A stretch of 64,000 bases of DNA, from assembly GCF_030013595.1 (NCBI RefSeq), contig NZ_CP122768.1, one strand, 5' to 3'. Origin of the DNA: Escherichia coli. Its GTDB lineage: Bacteria; Pseudomonadota; Gammaproteobacteria; Enterobacterales; Enterobacteriaceae. Of this stretch, positions 7,728 to 40,964 are shown one piece after another. The notes beneath the pieces are model-generated. The model was not told the origin of the DNA, ran no database searches, and worked only from the letters and a program-made list of their open reading frames with translations. Position 1 is the stretch's first letter; the number at the start of each line of letters is the position of its first letter. Made by a program: the position numbers and the translations under genes.

Positions 7728-7953
7728 CATCTTTATTCATTCACAGCGATTTAAATGCAATGTGTTCTACCACTTTATGTTCGAAGAAAAGGCGTATTTC
7801 CTCAATTAAACCATGATCCGCGCCACACTTTTCTCATAAAACTGCTTATTAATCATCAGGAGTTGATCAAAACAGGGGTTCGGCGTATTAAAGTTTGCTA
7901 ACCTGTCGCACCAATTTAAACAGGTTGTATGACTAATCAGAAGGGAACCCATT

Positions 7954-20050: not shown

Positions 20051-20535
20051 GAGTATTGGTATTCTCATTTCCCTTCTTTTAGAGCTGGCTTGTTAAATGC
20101 CAGCTTGCAAATTCATCGTTCCATCACCAGTACTATATTCAAGTGAAAATTGCTATTTTTCTTAAAGCATTAAGCATAAGCCTTATTTTATAGCGAATAT
20201 TCCTAAAGGCATTAATGGATGAAAAAGGGGTTTAATAAACTTCTTTTTTAGCAATTAGTGCTATTCTTTGTTAAATATGATGATGATAATCTTCTTATTG
20301 AAAGAAACAGTTTTCTTATTAAGCAACAATAACTCATGGTTCATTTTTAAATAAAATAAGAACTATGCAATTTTTAATCTATCGATTCGAAAGTATTAGC
20401 AAATTAGCCAAATTGACACCTTCCCACCTCCAACCAACACTCAATACAGACCTCTGACAACTTAATAAGTTTCATTTTTAACGTCTGATGACTCATCTCT
20501 TTCGTGGCTGTATTGTTTGTATATGGAGCGTTTAT

Positions 20536-23500: not shown

Positions 23501-25955
23501 AAGCGCTGAACATCCATGGTGGGCAAAAGCTGACGTTAGCCGAACATGGCGGAGCCTATGGCGCAACGGCCGATATGTCGGCAAAAATCGGTGGTGAAGG
23601 GGATCTGGCAATCAATACGGTACGACAGGTTTCGCTTTCCAACGGTCAGAACGACTATCAGGGGGCAACCTACGTTCAGATGGGGACATTACGTACCGAT
23701 GCGGATGGCGCGCTGGGCAACACCCGGGAACTGAACATCAGCAACGCGGCCATCGTCGATCTTAATGGATCGACCCAGACGGTAGAGACATTCACCGGGC
23801 TGATGGGTTCGACTGTTTTGTTCAAAGAAGGTTCGCTGACGGTGAATAAAGGTGGGATCAGTCAGGGCGAACTGACAGGTGGCGGAAACCTGAATGTTAC
23901 AGGGGGAACACTGGCTATCGAGGGGCTTAATGCACGCTACAATGCGTTAACCAGCATTAGCCCAAATGCGGAAGTCAGCCTCGATAATACGCAGGGGTTA
24001 GGCAGAGGAAATATTGCCAATGACGGTCTGTTAACGCTAAAAAATGTGACCGGCGAACTGCGTAATAGCATAAGCGGGAAGGGTATCGTGAGCGCAACCG
24101 CCAGGACAGACGTAGAGCTGGATGGCGATAATAGCCGCTTTGTGGGGCAATTCAACATTGATACAGGCAGCGCGCTCAGCGTCAACGAGCAGAAAAACCT
24201 GGGTGATGCTTCCGTTATCAATAATGGCCTGCTCACCATCTCCACTGAGCGTAGCTGGGCGATGACGCACAGTATCAGCGGTAGCGGTGATGTGACAAAA
24301 CTGGGTACCGGGAGCCTGACTCTTAACAACGATTCCGCGGCGTATCAGGGTACGACGGATATCGTGGGTGGTGAAATTGCTTTCGGTTCCGACTCTGCCA
24401 TTAATATGGCAAGTCAGCACATTAATATCCATAACAGCGGTGTGATGTCGGGAAATGTCACCACTGCAGGTGATGTGAACGTTATGCCTGGGGGACACTG
24501 CGTGTCGCCAAAACCACTATCGGCGGCAATCTGGAGAATGGTGGCACGGTTCAAATGAATAGCGAAGGGGGGAAACCGGGGAATGTGCTGACCGTTAACG
24601 GCAACTATACCGGAAACAATGGCCTGATGACGTTCAACGCGACGCTGGGCGGCGATAATTCGCCCACCGATAAGATGAACGTGAAAGGCGATACCCAAGG
24701 GAACACTCGCGTTCGGGTTGATAACATTGGCGGCGTCGGTGCACAAACGGTCAACGGTATTGAACTCATTGAGGTTGGCGGTAATTCTGCAGGTAACTTC
24801 GCGCTGACCACCGGAACTGTCGAAGCTGGGGCTTACGTCTACACGCTGGCTAAAGGGAAGGGGAATGACGAGAAAAACTGGTATCTGACCAGTAAATGGG
24901 ACGGCGTAACGCCAGCGGATACACCCGATCCCATCAATAATCCTCCTGTTGTGGATCCGGAAGGCCCATCAGTTTATCGCCCGGAGGCCGGAAGCTATAT
25001 CAGCAACATTGCCGCAGCCAACTCGCTGTTTAGCCATCGTTTACACGACCGTCTGGGTGAGCCGCAGTATACAGATTCACTGCATTCTCAGGGTTCGGCA
25101 AGCAGTATGTGGATGCGTCATGTCGGAGGGCACGAACGTTCAAGGGCCGGTGACGGTCAGCTAAATACTCAGGCTAACCGCTATGTATTGCAGCTAGGAG
25201 GCGATTTGGCGCAGTGGAGTAGCAACGCGCAGGATCGCTGGCATCTTGGCGTGATGGCAGGCTACGCCAATCAGCACAGTAATACTCAGAGTAATCGTGT
25301 GGGTTATAAATCGGATGGGCGCATCAGCGGTTACAGCGCAGGACTGTACGCGACCTGGTATCAGAACGATGCGAATAAGACCGGCGCTTATGTTGACAGC
25401 TGGGCGCTGTATAACTGGTTTGATAACAGCGTCAGTTCCGATAACCGTTCTGCTGTCGACTATGATTCTCGCGGTGTGACGGCCTCTGTTGAGGGTGGGT
25501 ATACCTTTGAAGCGGGAACATTTAGCGGCAGCGAAGGGACGCTGAATACCTGGTACGTCCAGCCACAGGCGCAAATCACCTGGATGGGTGTGAAAGATTC
25601 TGACCATACCCGGAAAGACGGAACACGCATTGAAACGGAAGGCGACGGAAACGTGCAAACGCGACTTGGGGTGAAAACCTACCTGAACAGTCATCACCAG
25701 CGTGACAATGGTAAACAGCGTGAGTTCCAGCCTTACATTGAAGCGAACTGGATCAACAACAGCAAAGTCTACGCCGTGAAGATGAATGGTCAAACCGTAA
25801 GCCGTGATGGTGCGCGTAGTCTCGGTGAAGTACGTACCGGGGTTGAGGCGAAAGTAAATCACAACCTTAGCCTGTGGGGGAATGTCGGTGTGCAACTAGG
25901 TGATAAAGGCTATAGCGATACTCAGGGCATGCTGGGTGTGAAATATAGCTGGTAA
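20536..25955 (+). pseudogene. yneO: AIDA-I-type autotransporter adhesin, frameshifted (about 1340-aa passenger reading frame + 466-aa C-terminal segment carrying the beta-barrel)
   Basis: Autotransporter extended signal peptide (MNRIYRVIWNCTLQVF...), repetitive Gly/Thr/Asn-rich passenger, C-terminal ...LGVKYSW barrel ending. The reading frame shifts at the G5 run 24490-24494; the continuous protein (…GGTLRVAKTTIGGNLENGGTVQMNSEGG…) needs a -1 shift. K-12 carries a pseudogene at this locus. Confidence 0.75.
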
Positions 25956-26165: not shown

Positions 26166-26432
26166 ATGATGAGCTTTCAGAAGATCTATAGCCCAACGCA
26201 ATTAGCGAATGCAATGAAACTGGTTCGTCAGCAAAATGGCTGGACGCAGAGCGAGCTGGCGAAAAAAATTGGTATTAAGCAGGCGACGATTTCCAATTTC
26301 GAAAACAACCCTGACAATACCACGCTGACGACCTTTTTTAAGATTTTACAGTCGCTTGAACTCTCAATGACGCTATGCGACGCGAAAAATGCCTCGCCAG
26401 AATCAACAGAACAGCAAGATCTGGAGTGGTAA
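26166..26432 (+). CDS. hipB: Antitoxin/repressor HipB (88 aa, XRE-type HTH)
   Basis: MMSFQKIYSPTQLANAMKLVRQQNGWTQSELAKKIGIKQATISNFENNPDN...; the ORF track starts at an upstream TTG, the true start is the ATG at 26166. Confidence 0.9.
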   Translation: MMSFQKIYSPTQLANAMKLVRQQNGWTQSELAKKIGIKQATISNFENNPDNTTLTTFFKILQSLELSMTLCDAKNASPESTEQQDLEW

Positions 26433-27242
26433 TGCCTAAACTTGTCACTTGGATGAACAACCAGCGGGTAGGCGAGTTAACGAAGTTAGCCAACGGCGCG
26501 CACACCTTTAAGTATGCACCGGAGTGGTTAGCCAGCCGTTATGCCAGACCGTTGTCACTTTCGCTGCCATTGCAGAGGGGGAATATCACCTCTGATGCCG
26601 TATTTAACTTCTTCGATAACCTGTTACCCGATAGCCCGATTGTACGTGACCGGATCGTTAAACGTTATCATGCCAAATCCAGACAACCGTTTGATTTATT
26701 GTCAGAAATAGGGCGAGACAGCGTTGGTGCCGTGACGTTAATACCCGAAGACGAAACCGTAACGCATCCGATAATGGCATGGGAAAAGCTTACTGAAGCC
26801 AGACTTGAAGAAGTATTAACGGCTTATAAAGCAGATATCCCTCTGGGCATGATTAGAGAAGAAAATGACTTTTATTCAGGCTGGCGGCAGTTATCGACTC
26901 ACGCCATTTTACGACATCATTTCAGCATTTCCGGTATTGGGTGGCGCAGGAATACACATCAGCGATCTCAAACTGGCAATGGGGCTTAACGCATCCAAAG
27001 GCAAAAAAACGGCAATCGATAAAATTTATCCGCGACATTTTCTGGCGACAGCAAAGTTGCTGAAATTTCCGGAAGTGCAGATGCATGAAATCCTGAGTGA
27101 CTTTGCCAGAATGATTCCGGCAGCACTGGATAACGTGAAGACTTCATTACCGACAGATTTTCCGGAGAACGTGGTGACGGCAGTTGAAACCAATGTGTTG
27201 AGGTTGCACCGTCGGTTAAGCCGAGAATACGGTATTAAGTAA
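26432..27242 (+). pseudogene. hipA: hipA toxin kinase gene with an internal out-of-frame deletion (about 0.5 kb missing)
   Basis: N-terminal 150 residues (MPKLVTWMNNQRVGELTK...GMIREENDF) then the frame breaks near 26870-26878; the C-terminal 125 residues (FIQAGGSYRLTPFYDIISAF...LSREYGIK) continue in a different frame. Locus is 811 bp versus about 1323 bp for intact hipA. Confidence 0.8.
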
Positions 27243-27461
27243 GATATGGGGTTTGGCCGTTGTTAATGAGCAGGACAATCATGACCGCCAACGACTGGAT
27301 TCTCCCTTGGTTTATGTTGGTGCGCATAATGTATATTATGTTAAATAGCCTACGATGGTAAACAACTTCATAAATCTCCATTGCCTTTCACGAAATCAAC
27401 AGGTTAACGATTTCTAACATCCCTCCCATTTCTTGCGTTAGGTGTAGAGTACATTTACTTC

Positions 27462-28280
27462 ATGTCCGCATCAACAATGAGGTTATCTATGTACTCGCTC
27501 AACCAACTAGTTGCCATCAACCACAAACGGCAATGGATTCTGATGGACACGGAAACCTGCTTACCGTTGTTGTACCCACTCAGATATCACATCGATCATT
27601 TGGCTTTTCGTTCATTGTCCACGCAGTCTGCTTCGCTGCAGGCCGTTAAGTTCTTTTACGAATTTTGGTTGCAGAAACACGGCGTCACGTTTTGCTATAG
27701 CTTCTATGCTTCTGGCCACAACCCGTGCATTGCTATTGAGGAAATGTCGGCATTTTCTCACTATCTGGAGAATGGTCGCGTAAGCCAATCAAATTTATTG
27801 GCATTCACTCCAGTCTCCACTTCCCATAGTTTTATCAACGCAGCGCGATTTCGTGCAGTAGCGCAGTTTATTGCTTTTTTGATTAACACGTATGTATCGC
27901 CGGTATATCGGGATGATTCTCCCAAAGCATTATCACTCCAGGCTTCCCGGTTACATACTCGCCTGCGCTTTTGTCGTGACAGTTATCGAGCGTTAACACC
28001 GGGAAAGCATTCTAACCATCGTCATATCCATCAGGGGTTTCAGAGTATGAACCGTGAAATGGTGATCAGTCTGTACACGATTATTGCTCCCTGCTCTAGC
28101 CAAAAATATAACCCATTAAATCCCTTCCCCACCAGAAACACCCAGTTTCGCAACTTTTTGATTATTCGCCTGTTACTGAATTATGGATTGCGAATAGGTG
28201 AATTATTGCTGTTGGAATGCAATTCTATAAAATCAAATATAAAAAAGGATAAGTTTAGTTTGATTGTAACTACAACTTGA
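27462..28280 (+). CDS. Tyrosine recombinase, N-terminal part (Tn554 TnpA-like / GInt integrase 1); probably disrupted
   Basis: 272-aa ORF ending shortly after a box-I-like segment (FLIIRLLLNYGLRIGELLLLECNSI); the catalytic C-terminal motifs are in the next ORF. Confidence 0.55.
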   Translation: MSASTMRLSMYSLNQLVAINHKRQWILMDTETCLPLLYPLRYHIDHLAFRSLSTQSASLQAVKFFYEFWLQKHGVTFCYSFYASGHNPCIAIEEMSAFSHYLENGRVSQSNLLAFTPVSTSHSFINAARFRAVAQFIAFLINTYVSPVYRDDSPKALSLQASRLHTRLRFCRDSYRALTPGKHSNHRHIHQGFQSMNREMVISLYTIIAPCSSQKYNPLNPFPTRNTQFRNFLIIRLLLNYGLRIGELLLLECNSIKSNIKKDKFSLIVTTT

Positions 28281-28305
28281 ATTTAGTCACTCTGCACCGT
28301 TTTAT

Positions 28306-28947
28306 GTGTCCAGGTCGATTAACCAGGTCATCCTTAGTTTCAGTCCGCCAGATTATCAGGCCGCCGTAGCGCGTGGCGAAGCGGCTCTACCAATTATTAC
28401 GCCGACCGACTTGCGCCACAACGTGGGGCACTCACTGGCTATGCAAGGGGTCAGCGCCGAGGAAATCGCGCATATTCTGGGACATACCTCCCTTACTGTT
28501 GCCAAGTATTACATTTTGGCGACACCTGCGCTGGCACTGATTCGAGCCAAAGCGTTGGGTACCAATCCGGTATGGCAAAATATGGTAGCTATGATGTTGA
28601 CTGGTGAACTGACCTCTTCAACGAAATGGCAAGGCCAGCGCGTGGTCGGCATAATCGGTGATCAGTTGCATGATGGGATTGGTGGTTGCTCCAGAGATAA
28701 TGGCGACTGCCCGTTCAGTGAAGTACGCTGCTGCTACGGCTGCCTGTATTATCGCCCCTTTACTGATGGTGACCATCAGGCTGTGCTGGAGAGTGTAGTT
28801 AAAGAAGTCGATGAATTGATCTCCATTTCAGACAGTGTTGGTAACGCCCGCAATCCACTTATTTCCATCCATGAAACCACACAATTTGAAATTCAATCCG
28901 TGATTGCCCGTTGCCGCTTTCGTCAGGAAAAAGGCGGTGTGCGATGA
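28306..28947 (+). CDS. Tyrosine recombinase, C-terminal part (catalytic box II); continuation of the previous ORF
   Basis: Contains DLRHNVGHSLAMQGVSAEEIAHILGHTSLTVAKYY (R-H...H...Y catalytic signature). Separated from the upstream ORF by about 25 nt with a stop; the R-to-HxxR spacing looks shorter than usual. Confidence 0.55.
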   Translation: MSRSINQVILSFSPPDYQAAVARGEAALPIITPTDLRHNVGHSLAMQGVSAEEIAHILGHTSLTVAKYYILATPALALIRAKALGTNPVWQNMVAMMLTGELTSSTKWQGQRVVGIIGDQLHDGIGGCSRDNGDCPFSEVRCCYGCLYYRPFTDGDHQAVLESVVKEVDELISISDSVGNARNPLISIHETTQFEIQSVIARCRFRQEKGGVR

Positions 28948-31310
28948 AAAAATATTTTGCGCAGTTTCACGCCTTTATCACCGAGCAGCAAAGCTGGTTT
29001 GAACAGCATCTGGCGACAGACTTCGAGCAGTCATGGGATGATCCTGTCTGGGTCTGCGGCAGCAATGGTAGTGGCTGGTTACGTGGTAATGGCAAAAATA
29101 AATTACGCTTTGATGAAATCAGCCGTACCAAAGGTATTGAGGGGCGCCATGCAGTGGCAGAAGACTATGCCCGGTTTATGAAAGCCCTGCTGGTACTAGT
29201 GTATCGGAGGCGAAATCGTAGCATATCCCCAGCGGTGGCTGTGGCAACGCTGATGATTTTGAAGCGCTGGTACCACTCGCTATTTGAGATGACCGGGCAA
29301 ACTCACCCAGTGTATCTAACCACCGGGGTAATTCAACGGTCAATGGATAGCCTCAGCGCAGCTTCGTCTCCAGGGGATCCCAATACCGCCAATTACAAAG
29401 GACGCTGTGTCAGTCTGCAAAAAATGGTTAATCACCAGTCATTCACGCTGGTGACACTGCAATATGTGTCTGATGCACAATATACCAATCAAACCAACCT
29501 GACCCGCAAAGCCCGGGAAACCATGGCTCTGAAACAGCAGGACAAGCTGACAGATACCACTACCGATGGTGAAGAGGCGTTGATTACCATTCGCGGTTTT
29601 CTGAACATCGTCGAATTAATCCAGCGGGTGGAAAGTGATGCTGAGAAAATTGCGTTAAATTGCCTGTTGTTATTGGTTATCACCGGCTTTCGCTCCATTG
29701 AAGCGTTTAATCTCAGACAGGATGCGCTGTTTAAACGCCAGATTGATGATCCGGCAATCCGCAAGCGGTTTCAGGACAAGGGATTACCCGATTATTTCCT
29801 TGGTATCCGTTATATTGGTGTCAAAGGTGCTGGGGAGCGAACGCATTGGGTAGAACCGCTGGCTGTACCGCTGGTCGAGAGTATATTCAGTTCCGTTAAA
29901 ATATTGACCGCACCAAAACGCAGTCATCTGACCTATCTACGGGAGAAATCTTTTACTGATTACCTGCCACAGGCCATCAGCGCCCTACCCGGTGAACAAG
30001 TTGAACTGGATGATGTGGTGACGTACATCACACAAACCGCCTCAAGTTTTCGTGGCCGGGCAGGACAACGAGACAAAACATCCAAAGCCCTCAACAAACG
30101 AGGTGTGCTGCCCGTTCTAGAAATGCCAGGGCCGAAAAACAGCAAATCTATCTATTATTCCAAGACTGACCTTAATCATTACATCAAGACCGAATTTGGC
30201 CTGACGGATGCCAACGAACCCTGTACGCACGCCTGGATGGAAAATGGCAAACGTTACGAAGTTAACTACGAAGACCTGTTATTTCTACATGAGAAGGGTT
30301 CGCTGGCATTAAAGCGCACACTGGCTTTGCTGGCTATACCGATACCATTCACTAACACACTTATGAATAAATTTTTAGGCAATGTTGAGCCTGATGGATC
30401 AGTATTCAGCAAATATCAATTACTGGAAGAGAATGGTACCCCCACCCGGATGCGTACCCACATTCCCCGGCACAACATCAATACCTTTCTTGCTATTGCG
30501 GATATCTCTGACCACTTACAGGCAATGTTGATGGGGCGAGTGGACATCACGCAGAATCAGCACTATCAACATCTGGCGCTTGCAGAACGGCGAAAAGCAG
30601 CCTCGTTGGTGCCCTTGCAGCCGATATCGACAGCACTAACTGCCGCGCCCTCTTCGTCCTCCATTGCTACGCCACTGGAAATCGTCAAACGGACCGGCCA
30701 ACTGGCGGTCACGAAACACATGACTTTGGACAATACCATCAAAGCCAACCTGCATACTTTTGACGATCGGGATGATGTAGCCAGGTTTGTCGAGGCGTCA
30801 TTTGCTGACGGCCTCTTTGAAGATGTTGCTGCCGCCTTTGAAGAAATCCGCGACGCAGAAGGACCAGAGCAAGCCTCTGCCATGGTGGCAAGACATGCCG
30901 TGATGTATCCGCTGAAATTTGGCTCCTGTATGCGGGAAGTTAACCTCTGGGGATGTCCTTATCGACTGAAATGCCAGAGTGCTGCCTTTTGTGAACATTT
31001 CACGCTGACAGGCCGGATAGATGAGCTACCCAATCTGATTGCCAAAAAACAGGCGTTACAGCAAGCACATTCGAAGTTGACCCAACTTACACAACATCAG
31101 CCTGACTACCAGACCAGACTGGCCGACATCGAACGACGGTTACAGCAACTCGAGGCAATACAAGCACAATGGCAGCGTCGTGCCAAGACTCAACAACTGG
31201 TTGCTGCGGAGAGTGTGTTGTCTGGTGGAGTAATCACCGAGGGCAAAGTCCGTACACTGGCCCAGCTTTTTGCACTTGAATACCAACAATTGATGCAGGA
31301 GAACGACTGA
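28944..31310 (+). CDS. Large tyrosine recombinase (Tn554 TnpB-like / GInt integrase 2), about 788 aa
   Basis: Box I-like LLLLVITGFRSIEAFNLRQD and box II-like THIPRHNINTFLAIADISDHLQAMLMGRVDITQNQHYQHL; ATG at 28944 overlaps the upstream stop (ATGA), suggesting translational coupling. Confidence 0.65.
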   Translation: MKKYFAQFHAFITEQQSWFEQHLATDFEQSWDDPVWVCGSNGSGWLRGNGKNKLRFDEISRTKGIEGRHAVAEDYARFMKALLVLVYRRRNRSISPAVAVATLMILKRWYHSLFEMTGQTHPVYLTTGVIQRSMDSLSAASSPGDPNTANYKGRCVSLQKMVNHQSFTLVTLQYVSDAQYTNQTNLTRKARETMALKQQDKLTDTTTDGEEALITIRGFLNIVELIQRVESDAEKIALNCLLLLVITGFRSIEAFNLRQDALFKRQIDDPAIRKRFQDKGLPDYFLGIRYIGVKGAGERTHWVEPLAVPLVESIFSSVKILTAPKRSHLTYLREKSFTDYLPQAISALPGEQVELDDVVTYITQTASSFRGRAGQRDKTSKALNKRGVLPVLEMPGPKNSKSIYYSKTDLNHYIKTEFGLTDANEPCTHAWMENGKRYEVNYEDLLFLHEKGSLALKRTLALLAIPIPFTNTLMNKFLGNVEPDGSVFSKYQLLEENGTPTRMRTHIPRHNINTFLAIADISDHLQAMLMGRVDITQNQHYQHLALAERRKAASLVPLQPISTALTAAPSSSSIATPLEIVKRTGQLAVTKHMTLDNTIKANLHTFDDRDDVARFVEASFADGLFEDVAAAFEEIRDAEGPEQASAMVARHAVMYPLKFGSCMREVNLWGCPYRLKCQSAAFCEHFTLTGRIDELPNLIAKKQALQQAHSKLTQLTQHQPDYQTRLADIERRLQQLEAIQAQWQRRAKTQQLVAAESVLSGGVITEGKVRTLAQLFALEYQQLMQEND

Positions 31311-31744
31311 TGCGCGGCAAGGAACTGGACACACTGATCGAGCACGAATTACAACTGATGCTGGTTGAAGGCTTTGACAAGTCCCCTATTTCCGCCAAGG
31401 CCCTGCATATTCGGCTCAAGGCAAAAGGTATCGTTAACGGTGGTTTAAGTACGCTGAGCAGCCTTGAGCGAAAACGCCTAATTGCTGCCTATGTTGATCA
31501 GCAACTTGGCCCATTGAATCTACGCCCAAAAGAAAAACAGCAATACGTCAACCGCAAAACCCGTCAGGCCTTGCTGGCCAGAAACCAGCAGTTGCAGGCG
31601 GAAGTCAGTGAGCTGCGAGACCAACTGGCGCAGAATACCCTGTCGTTGATAGAAATTGTCAAAGCGGTAAAAATCAATACAGTTATTCCGGTGGAAAGTC
31701 TGTTGGCTAAACATGTAATTCGGGAGTTACACAAGTCGTTATAA
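31310..31744 (+). CDS. Small coiled-coil protein (Tn554 TnpC-like / GInt accessory protein)
   Basis: 144-aa ORF whose ATG overlaps the upstream stop (TGATG); predicted coiled-coil (QQLQAEVSELRDQLAQNTLSL). Third gene of a recombinase-recombinase-small protein module. Confidence 0.5.
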   Translation: MRGKELDTLIEHELQLMLVEGFDKSPISAKALHIRLKAKGIVNGGLSTLSSLERKRLIAAYVDQQLGPLNLRPKEKQQYVNRKTRQALLARNQQLQAEVSELRDQLAQNTLSLIEIVKAVKINTVIPVESLLAKHVIRELHKSL

Positions 31745-31908
31745 TGCTGACATAGGAATATTTCGCCGACAGTTTCCCGGTTGTCGGCGAAATGCTGATT
31801 GTAATTTTTCGGCAAAGGGCATGGACGATTTCTTTTCGTTATTCTGCATATTGCTTACCTTCCCAAATTTCTCCAACCGTTAGTTGGAGAAATTAGATGG
31901 GTCGTAAA

Positions 31909-32103
31909 TCATGAATAAACGCCTTGATCTATTCGAAAAATGAGAATTGCAACTTTCAACGCCCCCTCTTCTGAGTCCATTATCTCAGAGGACGCTTTCC
32001 ACTGTAATGCTCTGTTTGGTTCATTGCACCAGTTTAATGCTGCACTTTCGTTACCTTCAAAAAGATCAATAGCCTTTTGTATAACATCATTTTTTGTCAG
32101 CAT
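31909..32103 (-). CDS. DUF2384-like (Xre/MbcA/ParS antitoxin toxin-binding domain) fragment, likely the frameshifted C-terminus of the upstream XRE protein
   Basis: ...AALNWCNEPNRALQWKASSEIMDSEEGALKVAILIFRIDQGVYS resembles the DUF2384 C-terminal signature; overlaps the XRE ORF by 17 nt across an A6 tract (T6 at 32090-32095 on the + strand). Confidence 0.45.
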   Translation of the reverse strand: MLTKNDVIQKAIDLFEGNESAALNWCNEPNRALQWKASSEIMDSEEGALKVAILIFRIDQGVYS

Positions 32104-32419
32104 GTTTTACACCTGAAGACGTTTTGAGTGCTTCGATAAGGCTACTTCGCTCTTCCTCTGTCATCCGAGATATGAGTAATGCAAGTTCTGCTGTTGTCTG
32201 ATCATCACAAAAAAGGTAGTTCAACGGCACGTTTAACTCTGCTGCCATCCGTCGAAGCGTATCAATATCGGGGACATGGCGTCCTTTCTCATAATGATTC
32301 ATACGACTGCTAGCCGATGCAGGATCAAAGCCAACAAGGAGACCCAGAGAGCGCTGTGATAAACCAGCCCTGCATCTCGCTTCCTTAAGTCGTTCTGGTA
32401 TCGGATTTTTTTCAGACAC
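32087..32419 (-). CDS. XRE-family HTH DNA-binding protein (110 aa)
   Basis: HTH signature LKEARCRAGLSQRSLGLLVGFDPASASSRMNHYEKGRHVPDIDTLRRMAAELNV. Confidence 0.7.
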   Translation of the reverse strand: MSEKNPIPERLKEARCRAGLSQRSLGLLVGFDPASASSRMNHYEKGRHVPDIDTLRRMAAELNVPLNYLFCDDQTTAELALLISRMTEEERSSLIEALKTSSGVKHADKK

Positions 32420-32503
32420 TGATTCATCTTCATTGGCCTCGAATGCTTAGATTGTCTAAGTATCTGCCATTGTTGTATACTTAGCAATCCTAAGTTAATA
32501 GCC

Positions 32504-33076
32504 TTGTTTTGTCATATGAATAGCCGAGTAACCAACCCTGAGTCGTACATATTTTCTGCAATCATCTTAATTGGCAAAGATAACTTCACCAGTAACGAAG
32601 TAGCAAAAATTCTTATCGAGCGATTTTCACTTCCGAAAAATTATTTAAAGGCAAAAGCTTTTGCTTATAACCAAATTCAATCCCTGGTTAGAAAAGGATT
32701 ATTAAACAAAGTAAGAAAAACAGGCGTGTATCAATATTTATACTCAGTCACAGCAGAATTCAATGTCGCAATAGAGTGCGTGAAATTAATTGAGGCAACC
32801 CCAAAGTCTTCCTGTCAACTTGTTTCAAGTGCTACCAACCATGAACACAGAAATGTAAATATCCAAATAAAGTCTCTTATTGAAAAATACAGCAGTGAAT
32901 TGGCGAAAGTATCAGGAGCAAAGGAGATTTATGAGGAATTGATAGTTGCTGTGCCGAGCAGGGAAAATGAATTCAGGAAGCTTTCTCTTGAACAAGAGAA
33001 AAAACACATCAAGATAAATGAAAAAATAAATACATTAATTGGAATTATTAATCAATCTCTTGCAGTAAGGCAATGA
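32504..33076 (+). CDS. Hypothetical protein (190 aa), AT-rich, divergent from the XRE gene
   Basis: Open frame only; lysine-rich with a possible N-terminal winged-helix-like segment and C-terminal coiled coil. No family recognised. Confidence 0.5.
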   Translation: MFCHMNSRVTNPESYIFSAIILIGKDNFTSNEVAKILIERFSLPKNYLKAKAFAYNQIQSLVRKGLLNKVRKTGVYQYLYSVTAEFNVAIECVKLIEATPKSSCQLVSSATNHEHRNVNIQIKSLIEKYSSELAKVSGAKEIYEELIVAVPSRENEFRKLSLEQEKKHIKINEKINTLIGIINQSLAVRQ

Positions 33077-33891
33077 ATTTTAGCAAGTATTTGAAGCTAA
33101 ATGGAGTCATGAAAAAGAGAGGGCAAAGCCGAACTCCGCCCTCTCCCGTCAAGCACTGATATATCTCATTAAAATGAGATTAACAGCGCGCACTCCTATA
33201 TGCTAGTCGTATATAAATATAATGTCAGCCAGTCCCGGATGCAACTCTTTAATGAAGTTCAGTACTCTCTTTTTTTAGTTATCGAAATGATAGTTGGTAC
33301 AAGGGAACACACGAAGAGGAAAATTGCGATGACTTTGACGCAGAGCATGTTGAGTCTATTATTGCGACCCTCGAAGCTCTGGATGCGTTAGATTTACGCC
33401 ACGGAAGATGGACTGTAAGTATCCCTCCAATAGTGCGACTCACTTACCCAGATTGTAAGTTCAAACGGTCGAAGGCACTAGATTCTGATAAGAATTTGAG
33501 GCGCATGAGTACAGGCATTCGATTGTCAGCTTCTGGGTAGTTGTGGGAATTCTGCTCAAAGTGCCGCTGGCCAAAACATATTGGGCGCTGGTCTGTGGCG
33601 GCAAAATGGTGTCACGTAAAAGATACAGATGTTCCAGTCTATTTTTGCCCAATAACGTGCCCCGGGTTCAGTTTTTTTGCTCGGGACTAAAACGCTTATC
33701 CAGATCAGCCGCCAGCTGTTCAATACTCTTCGTTGAGCCTTTATAAATATACCAATCAAACTGTTAAAAACTCGTTCAAATTCGACCAAATATTATTACT
33801 GGCTGATATTAGTTCGGTTAGGCAAAGCGCAACAAACAACTAAGAAGTGCGCCTCAAAAAATTAATTGTAAGGCGCCCCCCTAAAACACAT

Positions 33892-36219
33892 TTATTCTGT
33901 TATATTTCTTGGCAACATAGAAAAAGATGCTTGAGACAATCCTGCGCGCTTGAATTTATACCGTATATATGTTGACACTTCCATCTCATGGTTTGACAAC
34001 AAAATCTGACGATCTGAAAGCTCTACCCGTAACAAATCACTCAATGAAGCAATGTTAATCTCATCCATTGACTGTACTGGATCATCAATCAGTATAAATG
34101 GATTAAGCGCATATACCCTATTCAATGTTAGGAAAAATGCCAAACCTAATGATGCGATTTGCCCACTACTCATAGACAGGATTGCATCATGATCAGACTT
34201 CAGCGCAGTATTGAATTTGAGTATATCTCCTTTACCGCTCACTATAAACAAACCTAACCCACGCTGATAATTCTGTATGAGTCTTCCACTATATATATGG
34301 AATAACAGCTCTATATCACCAATAGTCTTTTTCGCATACTGTTTCGCAGTGTCGTCCAATTGCCGCCTAAGATTAACAATTTTTGCTTTTATTTTTTTGC
34401 CAGCTTCAATCCTAGAACTGAGCTTATCAAGCTCCGCTACTTTGGACTTGTACTCTTCGCTTTTGAATTTAGAATGAGCGGCTCTGAGATAGGATTCTTT
34501 ATTTTCAAAATCTGAAACACTAAGTGAGGTTATATCTGATGCGTTCAAGAAAGCCATCTCTAAGCTAGATGACCAGTCTAAAGGGAGCACATCCTTTTCT
34601 GGTTTTTTAGCTGTAGCAATAATCCCTTTTGCTTCATTAAACCGTAACAGCAGAGCTGCATCATCAGCCGTAAAACTAAGATCTTTTGATACGCCATAAT
34701 TTACCAACTGCAAAGCCACTTCACTTATGATTGAGAACTTAGATTCTGCTGCTGTGAGAGCCTTAAAAAGCACACTATCGAAATCTTTTGCAACTAGGTC
34801 ACGCTGCTGTGTGAATGCTGTTATCTGTAAATTTAGTAAGTCCTGTATTGACCTTACTGTCTCCTCCAACTTCTGGGCAGAAGCATCTATTTCAGATCGA
34901 ATTCTTTCCGCATTATTTACAGCGGCTTCCTCTAACGCAGCGTAAGTCGCCCATGATAACCCACAGAATGGACAACCGGAAATTTCCAAATCTTCACATT
35001 CTTGGTGTCGCCGCAGCAACTCTGCATGAGCATTTAGTAAATTTACAAGCTTTGCGTTCTTAGCTGCACTATCAGATTTAATTAGATCCCGTGCCTCAAT
35101 GAGACTATTTACACCAACCAAATCAGCAGCGTTCTTAAGACCGTTTAGGTCTACTTCATTTATCTCTGAAGCTGGCTTTCTGAATATCAAAAGATCATGA
35201 TCCAGCCCAACTAGCGTTGACTCCTTTACTTTCAGACCTTCATATCCAGCTACTTCAGAACCCAACTGAAGAGCCAACTTTATATCGACCTCTCTTTTTA
35301 AAAACGCATCAATATTACTATTAGCCTTTCTCGTCAGAACTTCATCAAAGTTCTGATATATTCTAAATATATTCCGTAATTCACGTATCAGAGTTTCAAT
35401 ATCTGTATCATTTACAGCCGATAGAGGCTGTTCAACATCCCAACCAGGTGACGGCGTCGCGGTACTTAACCGCTTGAAGTCAACGGAATTCTCGGCATCT
35501 TGAAACTGACCACTAAGCTGTTTAATTTTTTCATTCAACTCAGCCTGGAGGTCAGTATGCACTTTCCCCGTATAAGATTCCGTAATAATACTTTCTAACT
35601 CGGAGCAATATGATATCTGTCTCGTCAATTTATCGGTATTAATAAGATGCTCAATGCCTTTTTTTCTTTCAGTGGCATCCGTCGAGTACAGGTATCTATT
35701 CTGCCCTTGCTCAAGATAGTTCAATAAAGAGAAATTTTTTAAGAAGTTCTCTCCTAGAATACTCTCTAGTGCTTTAGAATCAAGACTCTCTCCAAACTTA
35801 TCGGAGTCTATACTGCTTATTTCGTAAAGCTTAAAAATAGAGAAGTTATCAGGTGCATTATTATCCGGGTTCGATAAATCCGCTATGGTAGCAACACGAG
35901 CTAGGAAAATTGACTCTCCTGAATCTTGATTTATGAGCTCAGCTCTAATAGCGATGTCGCCCTCTTTATTTCTATTCCAGTATATGTTTTCTTCAAATTG
36001 TTTTTTGCGCGAACGTTTTGCAACTGTTGCATCATTTGTATTGATAATTCTTTGTATAACGCCAGTAAACAAAAGCTCCAACGCATCAAATATGCTAGTT
36101 TTTCCAAAACCATTGGGGCCATCCAAGGTAATCATGGAGGCAGATCGAAAATCAATAGATGTATTTTCAAATGGCTTGAAATTTTCAATCTTGAGGCTGG
36201 ATATTTTCCATTTCTTCAT
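33892..36219 (-). CDS. Rad50/SbcC/SMC-like ABC ATPase with coiled-coil insert and CxxC zinc-hook-like motif (LmuB-like), 775 aa
   Basis: N-terminal Walker A (IENFKPFENTSIDF...LDGPNGFGKTSIFDALELLF), central CPFCG motif in a predicted coiled coil, C-terminal signature/Walker B/H-loop (SSGQIASLG...FILIDDPVQSMD...LLSNHE). Confidence 0.65.
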   Translation of the reverse strand: MKKWKISSLKIENFKPFENTSIDFRSASMITLDGPNGFGKTSIFDALELLFTGVIQRIINTNDATVAKRSRKKQFEENIYWNRNKEGDIAIRAELINQDSGESIFLARVATIADLSNPDNNAPDNFSIFKLYEISSIDSDKFGESLDSKALESILGENFLKNFSLLNYLEQGQNRYLYSTDATERKKGIEHLINTDKLTRQISYCSELESIITESYTGKVHTDLQAELNEKIKQLSGQFQDAENSVDFKRLSTATPSPGWDVEQPLSAVNDTDIETLIRELRNIFRIYQNFDEVLTRKANSNIDAFLKREVDIKLALQLGSEVAGYEGLKVKESTLVGLDHDLLIFRKPASEINEVDLNGLKNAADLVGVNSLIEARDLIKSDSAAKNAKLVNLLNAHAELLRRHQECEDLEISGCPFCGLSWATYAALEEAAVNNAERIRSEIDASAQKLEETVRSIQDLLNLQITAFTQQRDLVAKDFDSVLFKALTAAESKFSIISEVALQLVNYGVSKDLSFTADDAALLLRFNEAKGIIATAKKPEKDVLPLDWSSSLEMAFLNASDITSLSVSDFENKESYLRAAHSKFKSEEYKSKVAELDKLSSRIEAGKKIKAKIVNLRRQLDDTAKQYAKKTIGDIELLFHIYSGRLIQNYQRGLGLFIVSGKGDILKFNTALKSDHDAILSMSSGQIASLGLAFFLTLNRVYALNPFILIDDPVQSMDEINIASLSDLLRVELSDRQILLSNHEMEVSTYIRYKFKRAGLSQASFSMLPRNITE

Positions 36220-36940
36220 GAATCAGAGTCTCGATTAGTTTGTCTGCTTCAATCCCAGATGCAGAAGCATTAAAGATTTTGAGATGAAGACCGGTCAATT
36301 TTTTCTCGGCGAGTGCTTCCTTTACATAAATATCAAGCGGCTTTAGTGAGCTTTCCTTAACAGGAACCTTTACAAATGGAAGCTTTATAAAAATTCTCGC
36401 CGCGACGCTATATAATGTAGGCGATAGTGGTTGATCTCGATATTCTGCAAACATCCTATCATCGACAACAATCGCTGAAACGCTTTCGAAGTTGTGCCCT
36501 TCTAACAACCTAAGCTCTTCCTCGCTGTAATAAAGAAAATATTTTTTAAAATAATATGGATTCTCTTCAATTCCAAACACCTTACTCTCAATTCCATTAA
36601 AATCAACTCGGTGCCTTAATTTATGCAAAATAATCAGATCGGTATTTTTATCGAAAGCAGGATCAGATTTGAATGTTTCAGGAGCATACAGTAACACTAA
36701 TTTATTCAGCACCTGCGGTGATGGTATATTTTCACACTCAACCACAGCGAGGAATCGCTTCCTATCTCCACTATCCTGACTAAAATAAGTCAAAGACTTA
36801 TAATCAACACCTTCAAGACCAGCTAAAGTTTCTCCTGCCGAATACTCTATGGTGACGTCATCTGCTTTAGAATAGTCGCCTGTATTAAACAAAGTAAACT
36901 CATGTTTCAAGGCAGCCTGTAGAACAATATCTTTAATCAT
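36185..36940 (-). CDS. Middle gene of the three-gene operon (251 aa), unknown function, possibly LmuC-like
   Basis: Start overlaps the upstream stop by 8 nt and its 3' end overlaps the downstream ATPase start, indicating translational coupling. No recognisable motif. Confidence 0.5.
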   Translation of the reverse strand: MIKDIVLQAALKHEFTLFNTGDYSKADDVTIEYSAGETLAGLEGVDYKSLTYFSQDSGDRKRFLAVVECENIPSPQVLNKLVLLYAPETFKSDPAFDKNTDLIILHKLRHRVDFNGIESKVFGIEENPYYFKKYFLYYSEEELRLLEGHNFESVSAIVVDDRMFAEYRDQPLSPTLYSVAARIFIKLPFVKVPVKESSLKPLDIYVKEALAEKKLTGLHLKIFNASASGIEADKLIETLIHEEMENIQPQD

Positions 36941-38195
36941 TCAACTTCACCCTCGCCTCTTCCTTTGAAATTATTTTTGCATCAAAGGCTTTAGTTATTT
37001 TGTTACGATCCTTACCCATCAATGAAAACTCATCTTCTACAGCATCCCGCGAAGCTCCGGTAGCTGCACAAAATCGCTCAGCGGGTGAAAAAATATTTGC
37101 TCTAGCTGCGATTAGCCATTGATATTCAACTAAGATATCTATCAGCTCTGGATCGCTTTTCAGCTGCTCTATTAGATCTTCAGCAAACCTATGCTCCCGT
37201 CGAGCATTGTCTGCCGAAATTGCTGTTGGCAAATAAAAATCTCCGGCAGAGCACCTATAGTAAGGAGGCTTTTGCTCACTCAGTGGCGCTTTATCTATAT
37301 CGTAGATCACATCCACATAATCATAAACACTGTTCTCACTCACGACCATTGTGGAAGATCCAAAACATAACGACTTCCACAACCATATAAATGGAGTATC
37401 ACCCAACTCTTTAATCTGATCGTAAACATTTGCAACTTTTTGAATAACAGTTCTATCTGCTGTTTTTTCCATTGTATTGGTATACCCATACAATGATTTA
37501 CAAACGGCCATCCTGGCTTGGAACATTTTGTATACAATGTCGTCTTCATGGGTAGCGGTGAGGCTTAATAACTCTACAATCTTCTCACTTTTTAAAGTTT
37601 GAGTAAACGCGGCTTGTGCGGCGCTCATTAACCCATCCTGATTGCACGCGTGTATATATATTACTTGAGCGGCAATATGACTCTGCAAAGCCTCGAACTT
37701 CAAATTCACTAAAAAATCACTGCAAGGTAACTCTTCGGAAACCAGGTACTTCTCAATTTTTGATTTCGTTTTTTCTTCAACATCTTGGAGATAGCAGTAA
37801 GGCAGTCCATCGTAAGTATAAAATTTAACGACATTCCCATTGCTGCCAACAAAATCAGAAGCATCATCAAGGCGCGCAGATGTATGAAAATATCTTTTGG
37901 TAGTCTTATCACACAACATATATGTAGATGCAGCTTTTTCGAGAGCCTCCCTATAGGCAGCTCTTTTATCATCTGCTAGCGCTTTTACCTGATGCGTAGA
38001 AACTGCAACTCCATTTTCAATTATCGAAAAATCATCAATGCTGTCGATTTGCAACTCAAACGACATTTTATTGAGCACACATTCTATGGAATGATAAAGC
38101 GCTAAATGCCCTTGATAAATAAACCCACTCCATGTAGGTGCAGCTGTATGAGGATGGGAGGAAGCCGATTTCGACATGCAATATGTCCTAGGCAA
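36933..38195 (-). CDS. Candidate effector of a three-gene defense operon: PD-(D/E)xK nuclease-like protein (possibly Cap4/DUF4297-like, LmuA-like), 420 aa
   Basis: N-terminal region WSGFIYQGHLALYHSIECV...QIDSIDDFSIIENGVAVSTHQVK has the E..D..E/QxK spacing of restriction-endonuclease-fold proteins; first gene of an overlapping operon; AT-rich. Confidence 0.5.
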   Translation of the reverse strand: MPRTYCMSKSASSHPHTAAPTWSGFIYQGHLALYHSIECVLNKMSFELQIDSIDDFSIIENGVAVSTHQVKALADDKRAAYREALEKAASTYMLCDKTTKRYFHTSARLDDASDFVGSNGNVVKFYTYDGLPYCYLQDVEEKTKSKIEKYLVSEELPCSDFLVNLKFEALQSHIAAQVIYIHACNQDGLMSAAQAAFTQTLKSEKIVELLSLTATHEDDIVYKMFQARMAVCKSLYGYTNTMEKTADRTVIQKVANVYDQIKELGDTPFIWLWKSLCFGSSTMVVSENSVYDYVDVIYDIDKAPLSEQKPPYYRCSAGDFYLPTAISADNARREHRFAEDLIEQLKSDPELIDILVEYQWLIAARANIFSPAERFCAATGASRDAVEDEFSLMGKDRNKITKAFDAKIISKEEARVKLND

Positions 38196-38524
38196 ATTTA
38201 GAGACAGAGTCAGAAGTAACCTTCTAACTCAGTAGAATATGATCTTAATTTCTGTATCCGATGTTTATATTTTTTGTTGAACGCGCCCAGCGGCGTTATG
38301 AAAACTTCCTTGATTGTCATTTTTATGCATTCTCTTGATCGATAGGAATTTAAATCCCAAAAAGATTAAAAAAACACCCAAAAACGGATGTTTATTCGAC
38401 ACTGCCTGCGTGCCATGAGTGCACCGCCATCAATTAAATGGATCTTATCGAGTGATACTGTATATCACTGATGGTTTTTTACTCCATTCCCCTGAAAATG
38501 GACGCAACTTCCCCGATGCGGCTC

Positions 38525-39757
38525 TCAGCCGCACACCCGCTGTTGCGCCAGTGGCTCATGCATCAGGACCAGCTCTGTCAGACGGTAGCCCCGCTTCAGC
38601 CCCGTAAAACGCATCTGACATCCGCACAGGATGCACTTTAGCGGGTCAACCTTCAGTAACCGCTGATACATCCCTCTCCACCTGATTTGCATCGCCGTCT
38701 TTCTCACCGTCTCCGTTATGACGTACACAACATCTTCCAGTAACCGGCGCTTTACCGGACTCAGGAAACCGTAGTACCTCACCATACGGAACCCCTTATC
38801 CGCCACATGCCAGGAGAACCTTTCCATAAACTCATCACCACTCATCACCAGGTATTCTTCCCGTTTTGTCCGGTGACTGTTGTAACGCAGACCAATTTCA
38901 TCCTGACCAGCATAGTGCTCCAGACGGCTCATCGGCACCGGCGGTTTTTTCAGGTAAGAGCCGAAGTACACCGCCACATGTGTGGCGTTATCCATCACCC
39001 GGGATACGTTGACATTCCAGCCCCGCCGGTAATGACTGTCCAGGAAGCGATTCCAGTCCCGTCTGCTGCTTCCTTCAACTGCCAGCGCATCCGGTATCAC
39101 CAGCTCCGGGTATTTTCGTGACAGTAACCACGTTATCCTGTAACGCCACATGCTCATCACCTTACGGGCGTAAAAATGAAGGTTTTTCCAGGTGTGGTCT
39201 GGTGTCACGCCGCCGGCCGTTGTCGACAGGTGAATGTGCGGATGCCACTGCTGGTCACGTCCCCATGTGTGGATGACCGTGAATATCCCCGGCACCACAT
39301 CTGCCTGGCGGCAGATTTCCTGTATCACATCCGCAGCAATGCGGCTCATCTCTGCCAGTAACCACCGGTTGTGGAACACCAGGGACCAGTACTGGCAGGG
39401 AAGTGTGAACACAATATGCTGCCACGGACAGTCGGGAACCAGACTCAGCAGATACTGTATCCACTGTGCGCCAGCCTTCACTCCGCAGTGCGGGCAGGAG
39501 CGACTTTTACACCGGAAGCAGACCTTTTTTGTGTGGCAACAGTCCGGAGATGAACAGCACCACTGTGTGTACCCCATCAGCGTGGTTCCGCACGCCATGA
39601 TTTTTGTCACCGACTCAATGACTACCGGACGCACTGAACCTTCCGGTTGTTTCTCCAGCCAGTTAAGCCAGCGGTTTCCCTGCTGAAAAATGTCGGCAAA
39701 ACGGGGAAGCATCAGAAGGGCGGGGGGACTCCGTCCGGCCAGTGAACCGTGCCACAC
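38525..39757 (-). CDS. tnpA: IS91-family transposase (HUH rolling-circle type)
   Basis: 410-aa ORF with N-terminal Cys-rich zinc-binding region (CHTKKVCFRCKSRSCPHCG) and HUH-like motif HTWGRDQQWHPHIH. Confidence 0.7.
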   Translation of the reverse strand: MWHGSLAGRSPPALLMLPRFADIFQQGNRWLNWLEKQPEGSVRPVVIESVTKIMACGTTLMGYTQWCCSSPDCCHTKKVCFRCKSRSCPHCGVKAGAQWIQYLLSLVPDCPWQHIVFTLPCQYWSLVFHNRWLLAEMSRIAADVIQEICRQADVVPGIFTVIHTWGRDQQWHPHIHLSTTAGGVTPDHTWKNLHFYARKVMSMWRYRITWLLSRKYPELVIPDALAVEGSSRRDWNRFLDSHYRRGWNVNVSRVMDNATHVAVYFGSYLKKPPVPMSRLEHYAGQDEIGLRYNSHRTKREEYLVMSGDEFMERFSWHVADKGFRMVRYYGFLSPVKRRLLEDVVYVITETVRKTAMQIRWRGMYQRLLKVDPLKCILCGCQMRFTGLKRGYRLTELVLMHEPLAQQRVCG

Positions 39758-40077
39758 TCCGGGCAGTACATGCCGCCGGCGCTGATACCGGCAAGAATGG
39801 TCGCAAACTCCCGCTCCGTGCAGCGGGCTATTTCAGGATACCCTTCGTCATCGACACGAACAAACCAGAAGACCAGCTTTTTGTTTCCGGCATCCACAAA
39901 GAAGGGAATATTCAGGTCTGCGCAGCACTCAACGGCATCGTCAAAATTATCAAAGCGCAGAGCTTCTGCGTCTTCTTCGTCAAAGAAGTCATCGTCGTGA
40001 AGCTTCACGACATAGCGGGGAAGTTTGCTTCTTTGAGGGGCAGGTTTTCGTTTACGGGGTTTAGCTGAACGGGACAT
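39712..40077 (-). CDS. IS91 ORF121-like accessory protein
   Basis: 121-aa ORF immediately upstream of and overlapping the transposase gene, the size and position of IS91 orf121. Confidence 0.5.
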   Translation of the reverse strand: MSRSAKPRKRKPAPQRSKLPRYVVKLHDDDFFDEEDAEALRFDNFDDAVECCADLNIPFFVDAGNKKLVFWFVRVDDEGYPEIARCTEREFATILAGISAGGMYCPECGTVHWPDGVPPPF

Positions 40078-40964
40078 ATAACTACCTGAAAGACAATGAT
40101 ATTGTCTGTTTTTATAACGGTAATTTCAGGCCATGACAAGCCGCAGCCGCCAAGCTGCCTACTCGAGCGATATCGCTATGATATCACCGAATGTAACATA
40201 CCTGTAGGGTCAAAAAAAGGGTCAGCCAAACATTCTGGAGTGTTCGGTATCGTTGGTACCATTCATGCAAAATGGACTTAAATCTTAAGAAAGACACTCC
40301 ATTAGCTTAAGCTTCCCTACCTTACCCTACCAATACACCTAGCCAGCCGTGAGAACGCTACCGCCATCAGAGGCATTAGTCCCGATTAAGTATCGATGCA
40401 ACCAAATGTTACCAAAATTCATGAATTGTTCAAGAAGGCAATCAGATAATCCCTAAAGCTTTATGGGCCTGGTTATGCGATTACATTGGGAAATGGTTCA
40501 TGAACAGAAGTAGAGCAAGCTGCCAAGAAATGCTCATAAGAGGCGAATTTCCTGTTAGTTCATGAAGCCACCTGGAAGTGAATTCATCTTTCTATTAAAA
40601 ATATTCATTTAAAGCAAAGAGATATGTCATCTGTGGTTTATGAACTGGATTCTCGCTCAACATAAGTTAAATGTGGTGGGTTTGTTCTTAAGTTCATGTG
40701 TTCCGCTCTTTCAGTAGCTTAACTGATGAATCAGTCAGCAGCTCTTGCCGTGCAAGCTACGCGGCGGTTCGTACCAGATTGGCCACCTCCATCTCCTGGT
40801 TCGCTTTCCCCTCCCCCCGGTAAACCTCACCCAACGTTAATTAATGATGTCAGTATGTGGGCGCTATCCTTGTATGTAAAATCCACTGACGATTATGCCC
40901 ATCTGTGAAAAAAACTCACAATGCCATTCGATGCATCTCCATACTGAACGAGGCGTTATCGTCT

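Follow-up and report, generated by a model that had tools for sequence, protein, structure and literature searches.

Two adjacent recombinase genes, ginA and ginB, very probably fused by one 1,472-bp deletion in a GInt-type island downstream of hipA in Escherichia coli

Within a 64,000-nucleotide stretch of an Escherichia coli genome (NCBI RefSeq assembly GCF_030013595.1, contig NZ_CP122768.1; hereafter the window), the tyrosine recombinase coding region at the start of a genomic island is interrupted between its catalytic boxes. Is this one gene split by a lesion, and can the island still excise? A first-pass annotation of the sequence described a first recombinase ORF that stops at 28280, about 25 residues after a box-I-like arginine, and a catalytic H-x-x-R/H/Y segment that resumes at 28306 in a new ORF. 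ORF coordinates and motifs agree with both the stop and the restart, which are deterministic rather than statistical features of the sequence. The anatomy of the lesion differs from that description. We consider it very likely that a single 1,472-bp deletion in an island of the GInt type fused ginA to ginB, and we infer that the island was thereby left unable to excise or integrate alone.

The island and its intact relatives

The island occupies positions 27347-40672, just downstream of hipA, in the E. coli hipA/ydeT hotspot, which is hotspot #20 in a catalogue of E. coli defence islands (PMC10121019 supplement). Alignment with K-12, which represents the empty site, stops at 27346, 104 bp past the hipA stop codon. 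Outside the interrupted recombinase region, the island has the following features.

27336..27346, + strand: attL core TTATGTTAAAT, at the end of the K-12 homology; the island starts at 27347
28944..31310, + strand: ginC, intact, 788 aa; its ATG overlaps the ginB stop (ATGA)
31310..31744, + strand: ginD, intact, encoding a small protein of 144 aa; its ATG overlaps the ginC stop
31745..38338, no strand assigned: cargo ORFs, 99.8% identical to the Klebsiella pneumoniae plasmid pSYCC6-1_3 (CP113223.1; L009); product names are from the RefSeq annotation of the identical region
31909-32103, - strand: cargo, gene for an MbcA/ParS/Xre-type antitoxin
32087-32419, - strand: cargo, HTH gene
32504-33076, + strand: cargo, 190-aa ORF
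33892-36219, - strand: cargo, AAA ATPase
36185-36940 and 36933-38195, - strand: cargo, ABC-three-component-system genes
38339..40166, no strand assigned: IS91-family insertion within the 3' region of the island, found neither in the intact plasmid copies nor in NZ_CM149870.1
40662..40672, + strand: attR core ATAAGTTAAAT, the right end of the island; a direct repeat identical to the attL core at 9 of 11 positions

The left junction, GTTAAAT followed by AGCCTACG, is common to L009, a Raoultella planticola plasmid (NZ_CP114773.1, L010) and a Citrobacter freundii contig (L003). At the right end, the sequence ...CAACATAAGTTAAAT recurs in the window, L009, L010 and E. coli H3, each time with a different flank beyond it. 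The AT content reaches 66% in the last 150 bp of the island, above the overall values of the window (53%) and of the element (56%). As deduced from these ends, recombination of attL with attR would give a circle junction reading ...CAACATAAGTTAAAT + AGCCTACGATGG... and an empty site reading TATGTTAAAT then GTGGTGGG.

The two downstream gin genes are well preserved. GinC is identical to the GinC of plasmid CP113223.1 at 780 of 788 residues; by eye it contains the motifs GFRSIEA, HIPRH and QHYQ, and its match to the Pfam Phage_integrase family (residues 493-545, E=0.038) lies below threshold. GinD is identical to the plasmid protein over its whole length (144/144 residues) and corresponds to the RefSeq protein WP_077884466.1 in both NZ_CM149870.1 and plasmid NZ_CP114773.1. 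No further gin homologue was found within the 64-kb window.

Intact copies of the island, 99.5-99.8% identical and with identical cargo, reside on Klebsiella and Raoultella plasmids; tblastn retrieved the near-identical intact islands of L009 and L010. In the intact copies, ginA, ginB, ginC and ginD encode proteins of 463, 517, 788 and 144 aa, respectively. The C. freundii contig, recovered in a protein search through its full-length GinA with 98% identity, is 97% identical, carries all four genes intact and begins its cargo with the same genes as the window. Downstream of hipBA, E. coli H3 encodes consecutive integrases of 463 and 516 aa, followed by proteins of 788 and 144 aa. Its ginB3'-ginC-ginD segment is 92-95% identical to the window, though its cargo differs (CBASS). 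Across the intact relatives, the first gene encodes 463 or 445 aa and the overlapping ORFs lie directly after attL.

Two gene remnants and the junction between them

Comparison with these relatives resolved the interrupted region into parts of two genes.

27489..28280, + strand: ginA', GinA residues 1-263 of 463 plus a TGA made by the junction
28277..28278, no strand assigned: deletion junction, with 1,472 bp missing and 1 bp of ambiguous microhomology (T at 28277)
28279..28947, + strand: 'ginB, GinB residues 296-517 of 517; the first possible start is the GTG at 28306

The first ORF, delimited mechanically as 27462..28280 (272 aa), encodes 263 aa from the homologue-supported start at 27489 and ends with the TGA at 28278-28280. 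It represents the 5' 57% of ginA, and over all 263 residues it shows no difference from GinA 1-263 of plasmid CP113223.1. Compared to E. coli H3, it aligned with GinA residues 1-264 at 56% identity (E=2e-99) and gave no significant match to GinB (E=0.5). Catalytic positions were assigned by reference to the canonical XerC/XerD patterns for box I and box II and, for GinB, also by alignment to an XerC-like structure. Intact GinA (463 aa) has R235, H361-x-x-R364, W413 and Y423 as catalytic residues. GinA' retains the N-terminal domain and, among these residues, R235 only, within a box-I-like GLRIGEL; H361-x-x-R364, W413 and Y423 are gone. The ORF stops 28 residues beyond R235, close to the 25 first estimated. 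In Pfam scans, intact GinA matched PF00589 above threshold at residues 198-352, and the ginA' fragment gave no match. A search of solved structures with GinA returned nothing at E<=0.01.

The second ORF (28306..28947, 213 aa, GTG start) lies in the +1 frame relative to the first, and this frame is already open from 28279. It belongs to 'ginB, the 3' 43% of ginB. Every residue of 'ginB (222/222) is identical to GinB 296-517 of CP113223.1, and the second ORF shares 96% identity with residues 295-516 of E. coli H3 GinB. The catalytic residues of intact GinB (517 aa) are R224, R341-H342, H364 and Y372/373, of which the window keeps all but R224: the second ORF contains the motifs DLRH (R341, H342), LGH (H364) and AKYY (Y372/373). 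'GinB lacks its own start, the N-terminal 295 residues with the DNA-binding N-terminus, and the box-I arginine R224. The Pfam Phage_integrase match is partial, with second-ORF residues 30-70 covering profile positions 126-166 of 172; intact GinB passes the PF00589 threshold. The structure search with GinB gave weak XerC-like matches only, which served to map the GinB motifs. NCBIfam scans produced only far-sub-threshold matches, to Xer and GmtY models; for GmtY (NF040693), the recombinase of the gamma-mobile-trio (GmtY/Z/X), GinB scored 15.1 bits against a cutoff of 340. In NZ_CM149870.1, RefSeq already annotates the second piece as a pseudogene "missing N-terminus."

What separates the two remnants became clear from blastn alignment with L009. 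Window positions 27320-28277 correspond to L009 5907-6864 (99.5% identity, no gaps), and window positions 28277-38344 correspond to L009 8337-18403 (99.8% identity). A base-by-base check of the junction confirmed that the two flanks align gap-free to the same base, and that the absent 1,472 bp are those at 6865-8336 of the plasmid. A single deletion of this segment took out GinA residues 264-463 (200 codons) together with GinB residues 1-295 (295 codons). As 1,472 leaves a remainder of 2 when divided by 3, the junction is out of frame. It reads ACT|TGA; ginB codon 295 supplies the T of TGA, and codon 296 supplies the GA. The TGA is thus a by-product of the out-of-frame join rather than a second mutation.

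The first-pass annotation had also noted a short distance between the catalytic arginines and proposed a stop together with a small internal deletion. The distance is indeed short, at about 73 residues across the lesion, whereas the intact proteins have 129 (GinA, R235-R364) and 117 (GinB, R224-R341). This shortening follows from the 1,472-bp deletion, whose junction also generates the stop codon. The lesion, the broken recombinase function and their bearing on excision hold, and the picture of one split gene gives way to parts of ginA and ginB.

A scan of positions 27240-29100 for promoters and terminators revealed nothing informative. We also considered that a recombinase had produced the deletion at pseudo-att sites. 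By eye, ACAACT|GATGAAAAT and GCTATT|TGAATTTAG at the two endpoints show only weak resemblance to the GTTAAAT core, and this candidate was set aside.

Origin and inheritance of the allele

Several other explanations of the locus were weighed against a single deletion across two genes. The reading closest to the initial description, in which one Tn554-TnpA-like recombinase gene was hit by a nonsense mutation and a small deletion between box I and box II, accommodates the stop at 28280, the restart at 28306 and the short arginine spacing. However, in every intact relative the homologues of the two parts are separate, neighbouring genes, the missing segment of 1,472 bp is not small, and the TGA is assembled by the junction; we regard this reading as extremely unlikely. 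An artefact of sequencing or assembly is less probable still, to the point of being negligible, since the identical junction is present in two complete genomes and the truncated products recur unchanged in many independent assemblies, which come from different projects and include both NCBI assemblies and Logan runs. A recombination between two tandem GInts at the hipA site, with ginA derived from one and ginB from the other, would fit the observation that, compared to other E. coli islands, the left part is 72% and the right part 92-95% identical, with the switch exactly at 28277. The hipA site does carry tandem insertions. Nevertheless, one and the same intact plasmid element matches the left and right sides equally well (99.5% and 99.8%). 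Moreover, the step at which GInt lineages diverge lies inside ginB, in the segment that was deleted, at approximately position 7840 of L009 (about 500 bp upstream of the endpoint of the deletion), and therefore the identity appears to switch at 28277. Such a chimera is, in our judgment, highly improbable.

About equally improbable is a functional two-ORF state, either a hybrid GinA-GinB made by +1 frameshifting or a split enzyme assembled from the two fragments. The frames differ by +1 exactly at the stop codon (ACU UGA A), the fragments jointly hold R...R-H-H-Y, and in-frame GinA-GinB and GinB-GinC fusion proteins are known in other lineages (P0097, P0108, P0155/P0156). Yet the junction contains neither a prfB-type slippery codon (CUU UGA) nor an upstream Shine-Dalgarno-like stimulator, and on this sequence we rejected programmed frameshifting. 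A hybrid GinA-GinB, itself very unlikely, would combine parts of two paralogues and, between box I and box II, would be about 45 to 55 residues short in its catalytic domain. The two-ORF state is also limited to one recent E. coli lineage. The initial description had allowed that homologues sharing the two-ORF organization would mark it as conserved and functional; instead, the closest relatives, the plasmid copies with 99.5-99.8% identity, are intact, and other broken alleles break at unrelated positions.

These other alleles place the deletion in a broader pattern. Truncated GinA homologues break at many different positions, and several are fused to different downstream genes. The gin family as a whole contains many independent operon-internal deletions, which fuse ginA to ginB, ginB to ginC, ginA to ginC or ginA to cargo.

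To describe the distribution of the allele, we compared window positions 27400-29000 by megablast with 5,426 complete E. coli genomes. Matches were found in 126 of them, and in all but two the homology starts exactly at window position 28277. The identical junction is present in 2 of the 5,426 genomes; both are from pig isolates of one UK study, and their chromosomes differ in length by 1 bp. The exact 213-aa product occurs on 71 contigs (the index lists 120 blocks); the loci shown are all from E. coli and all place it downstream of hipBA. Carriers include strain HCP5S3_I2. The state of hipA varies among carriers: the gene is intact in several, shortened by a deletion of 512 bp in the window and of 710 bp in one Logan assembly, and frameshifted in another Logan assembly. 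Because carriers differ in this way, the gin deletion is older than the hipA changes and is stably inherited. The allele is inherited in an E. coli lineage. No intact version of this particular island was found among the complete E. coli genomes, and integration of an intact island followed by deletion in situ is the parsimonious history.

According to the single-deletion model, an intact GInt-type island carrying ginA-ginB-ginC-ginD would have inserted just downstream of hipA. In this E. coli lineage, an illegitimate deletion with 1 bp of microhomology would then have eliminated the last 200 codons of ginA and the first 295 of ginB, so that the ginA frame would meet the TGA at once and the ginB remnant would be left without a start codon. 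Since GinA' keeps only R235 and 'GinB lacks both R224 and the N-terminus, neither can be a complete tyrosine recombinase.

Consequences and comparison with known elements

As judged from the four-gene requirement of another GInt, the island has very probably lost the capacity for autonomous excision and integration. In the Pseudomonas stutzeri GInt and its synthetic mini-element pGInt0, mutating any of ginA, ginB, ginC or ginD abolished circle formation and integration, and complementation restored them (PMC5385486); the proteins of that element are at best distant from those studied here. The island would stay fixed in the chromosome unless a related intact GInt supplied GinA and GinB in trans. 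Mobilization of this kind is conceivable because the att ends, ginC and ginD are intact. A more speculative proposal, which we hold to be rather unlikely, is that the deletion represents one case of a recurrent, possibly selected locking of enterobacterial GInts into the chromosome, with the copy either mobilized in trans by an incoming GInt or its GinA N-terminal domain interfering with incoming GInts at the hipA att site.

The lesion itself reflects the routine degeneration of mobile elements of a known class. The literature already covers GInts, the need for all four genes and the occurrence of truncated gin operons, and there is no new biology here. The practical gain is a corrected annotation, in which an apparent single split integrase becomes two adjacent recombinase genes joined by a deletion. 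An island with an ABC-three-component defence system is thus predicted not to excise alone and to retain usable att sites, which is relevant to the scoring of mobility in defence islands and to the planning of excision PCR.

We assign the island to the GInt type on the basis of its architecture, its ends, its host range and its colinear Pseudomonas homologues at 22-30% identity. By the published definition, a GInt has a four-gene operon after attL, variable cargo, imperfect short repeats and an AT-rich 3' end (PMC5385486). The intact relatives have, at their 5' end, co-directional overlapping genes for two tyrosine recombinases, then for a large and finally for a small protein, and the window retains this operon apart from the 1,472 bp. 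As in the GInts described in 2017 (PMC5385486), cargo starts right after ginD, and its content varies: an ABC-three-component system in the window, L009 and L010, and CBASS in E. coli H3. The site-specific insertion is flanked by imperfect direct repeats of about 11 nt, within the 10- to 17-nt range of GInts, and the short 3' end is AT rich. The hosts of GInts include Escherichia, Pectobacterium and Klebsiella (PMC5385486). In a survey, GInts were present in 7.5% of the replicons from Escherichia and 39.5% of those from Pectobacterium (PMC10214605), in agreement with the taxa of the homologues found here.

The island also departs from the GInt model. Its ginA and ginB are fused and inactivated by the deletion, although truncated gin operons have been reported before (PMC5385486). 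Its proteins are distant from the compared Pseudomonas homologues, which are colinear genes on a Pseudomonas aeruginosa plasmid and not the type GInt proteins of P. stutzeri DSM 4166 or the Pht-PAI: GinA 26% (E=9e-27), GinB 30% (E=4e-35) and GinC 22.5% (E=3e-27) identity. The GinC-like family of this plasmid is widespread in Pseudomonas, with one member in Stutzerimonas stutzeri. With the GinC-like protein of this plasmid as the query, neither the homologue search nor the cluster listing recovered the reference accession WP_014595881.1, and look-ups in the supplements for accessions or records of E. coli GinC or GinD found none. Unlike the published GinC, a recombinase-like protein said to be without the first arginine or the RHRY set, the GinC of this island seems on motif inspection to keep a box-I-like arginine and an HxxR...Y.

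Strand-biased circularizing integrative elements (SE; intA-tfp-intB-srap) resemble the island in having four core genes, namely, two tyrosine recombinases, a large protein with a tyrosine recombinase fold and a small auxiliary protein (PMC10214605). We also count as likenesses that all four SE genes are needed for attL x attR recombination and that 6-bp footprints lie beside the core (PMC10214605). The gene order of SE, however, is TR-large-TR-small, as opposed to TR-TR-large-small here, and SE and GInt proteins formed separate clusters in the published survey (PMC10214605).

Tn554-like TnpA homologues, initially suggested as the standard for alignment, are not the best comparison, as the intact relatives have the four-gene TR-TR-large-small layout of GInts. 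Tn554 (tnpA-tnpB-tnpC) shares with the island a pair of adjacent tyrosine recombinase genes with a small essential gene behind them, as well as site-specific insertion without classical terminal repeats. It has no counterpart of the 788-aa third protein and belongs to Gram-positive hosts; we set it apart by gene layout. No Tn554-specific family was matched in the NCBIfam or Pfam scans, and the intact relatives have four genes rather than a three-gene module. Finally, the locus is similar to the degraded integrase genes of fixed prophages and islands, in which the element's own recombinase is deleted and cargo and att sites are left. Unlike integrase pseudogenization in general, one deletion here disables two recombinase genes and mimics a single split gene.

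Deletions and mosaicism within the gin operon

Many independent deletions internal to the gin operon were found in Enterobacteriaceae, where they are seen as in-frame fusion proteins with differing breakpoints, in a sample biased toward in-frame events and toward relatives of the query proteins used. The fusions are of the GinA-GinB, GinA-GinC, GinA-cargo, and GinB-GinC kinds, and some recur on several contigs, complete chromosomes among them. The proteins showing such deletions are P0033, P0097, P0108, P0112, P0007, P0098, P0101, P0155, P0156, P0180, P0181, P0204, P0205, P0211, and P0221. The GInt lineages sharing the hipA att site are mosaic. When the K. pneumoniae plasmid copy (L009) was compared with L001, the boundary fell inside ginB, at about L009 position 7840. 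Identity at the DNA level is just ~50 to 70% across ginA and the initial ~130 codons of ginB, and it is 80 to 100% across ginC, ginD, and the remainder of ginB.

The third protein of the operon, GinC, was examined for recombinase motifs.

28944-31310: ginC, motif-bearing

Its Pfam match was subthreshold (E = 0.038). Box-I-like GFRSIEA, HIPRH, and QHYQ motifs are present at residues ~248 to 254, 506 to 510, and 539 to 542, respectively; on the strength of these motifs, GinC in this family may keep more of the catalytic set than published accounts of GinC suggest.

hipA and other differences around the island

26432-27242: hipA with a 512-bp deletion, junction at ~26872/26873
20488-25955: ECSE_1600-family autotransporter, split, indel at ~24490
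38339-40166: IS91-family element in the 3' noncoding region of the island, inserted at a CTTGA site
49143-52424: ydeQRST stretch (major subunit, chaperone, and 5' part of the usher)

Sequence comparison with K-12, E. coli H3, and the carrier strain HCP5S3_I2 revealed that the internal deletion in hipA shifts the frame. HCP5S3_I2, whose hipA has no 512-bp deletion, is otherwise near-identical to the window. Among sibling assemblies that share the gin deletion, hipA has an independent 710-bp deletion in L013 and a frameshift in L014, and it is also found intact. The toxin gene seems to have been repeatedly inactivated in the E. coli lineage carrying the gin deletion.

The autotransporter occupies two ORFs (20488-24558 and 24555-25955) because of a 1-bp deletion relative to the intact 1,806-amino-acid gene of HCP5S3_I2, which could be a genuine frameshift or a sequencing error. 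Its K-12 orthologue, yneO, is a pseudogene too. The IS91-family element is missing from HCP5S3_I2 and the plasmid copies. The 3.3-kb fimbrial stretch is present in the window and in E. coli H3 and missing from K-12, in which ydeT is a truncated usher.

The att site and a second segment

27320-27346: left-flank stretch, GTGCGCATAATGTATATTATGTTAAAT (L003, C. freundii, 2261-2287; L009 and the R. planticola plasmid L010, ~5907-5933; L007, 3978-4010)
40673-48456: second segment without gin genes, between the GInt attR and the K-12 flank

A stretch matching, apart from a few substitutions, the 27 to 33 bp left of the insertion point also borders the plasmid and Citrobacter copies at their left junctions. 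This flank is directly adjoined by an ISNCY/ISKpn21-family IS end in each of these copies, as it is in E. coli 22AR0747. Either the att site would be recognized over about 27 bp, or the flank may move with the element or the IS.

The second segment encodes a LysR regulator, a glutamine amidotransferase-like protein, aldo/keto reductases, and oxidoreductases. It terminates in ...AGTTAAAT, as the GInt does, and in strain 22AR0747 it comes directly after the attB-left sequence. Judged from this shared end and position, it appears to be an older insertion at the GInt's att site, which would make the arrangement a tandem array. The 6 bp past its terminal core read GGAATT, compared to CATGTC in K-12, with identical flank beyond. 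This difference recalls the 6-nucleotide overlap footprints that have been reported in GInts and SEs.
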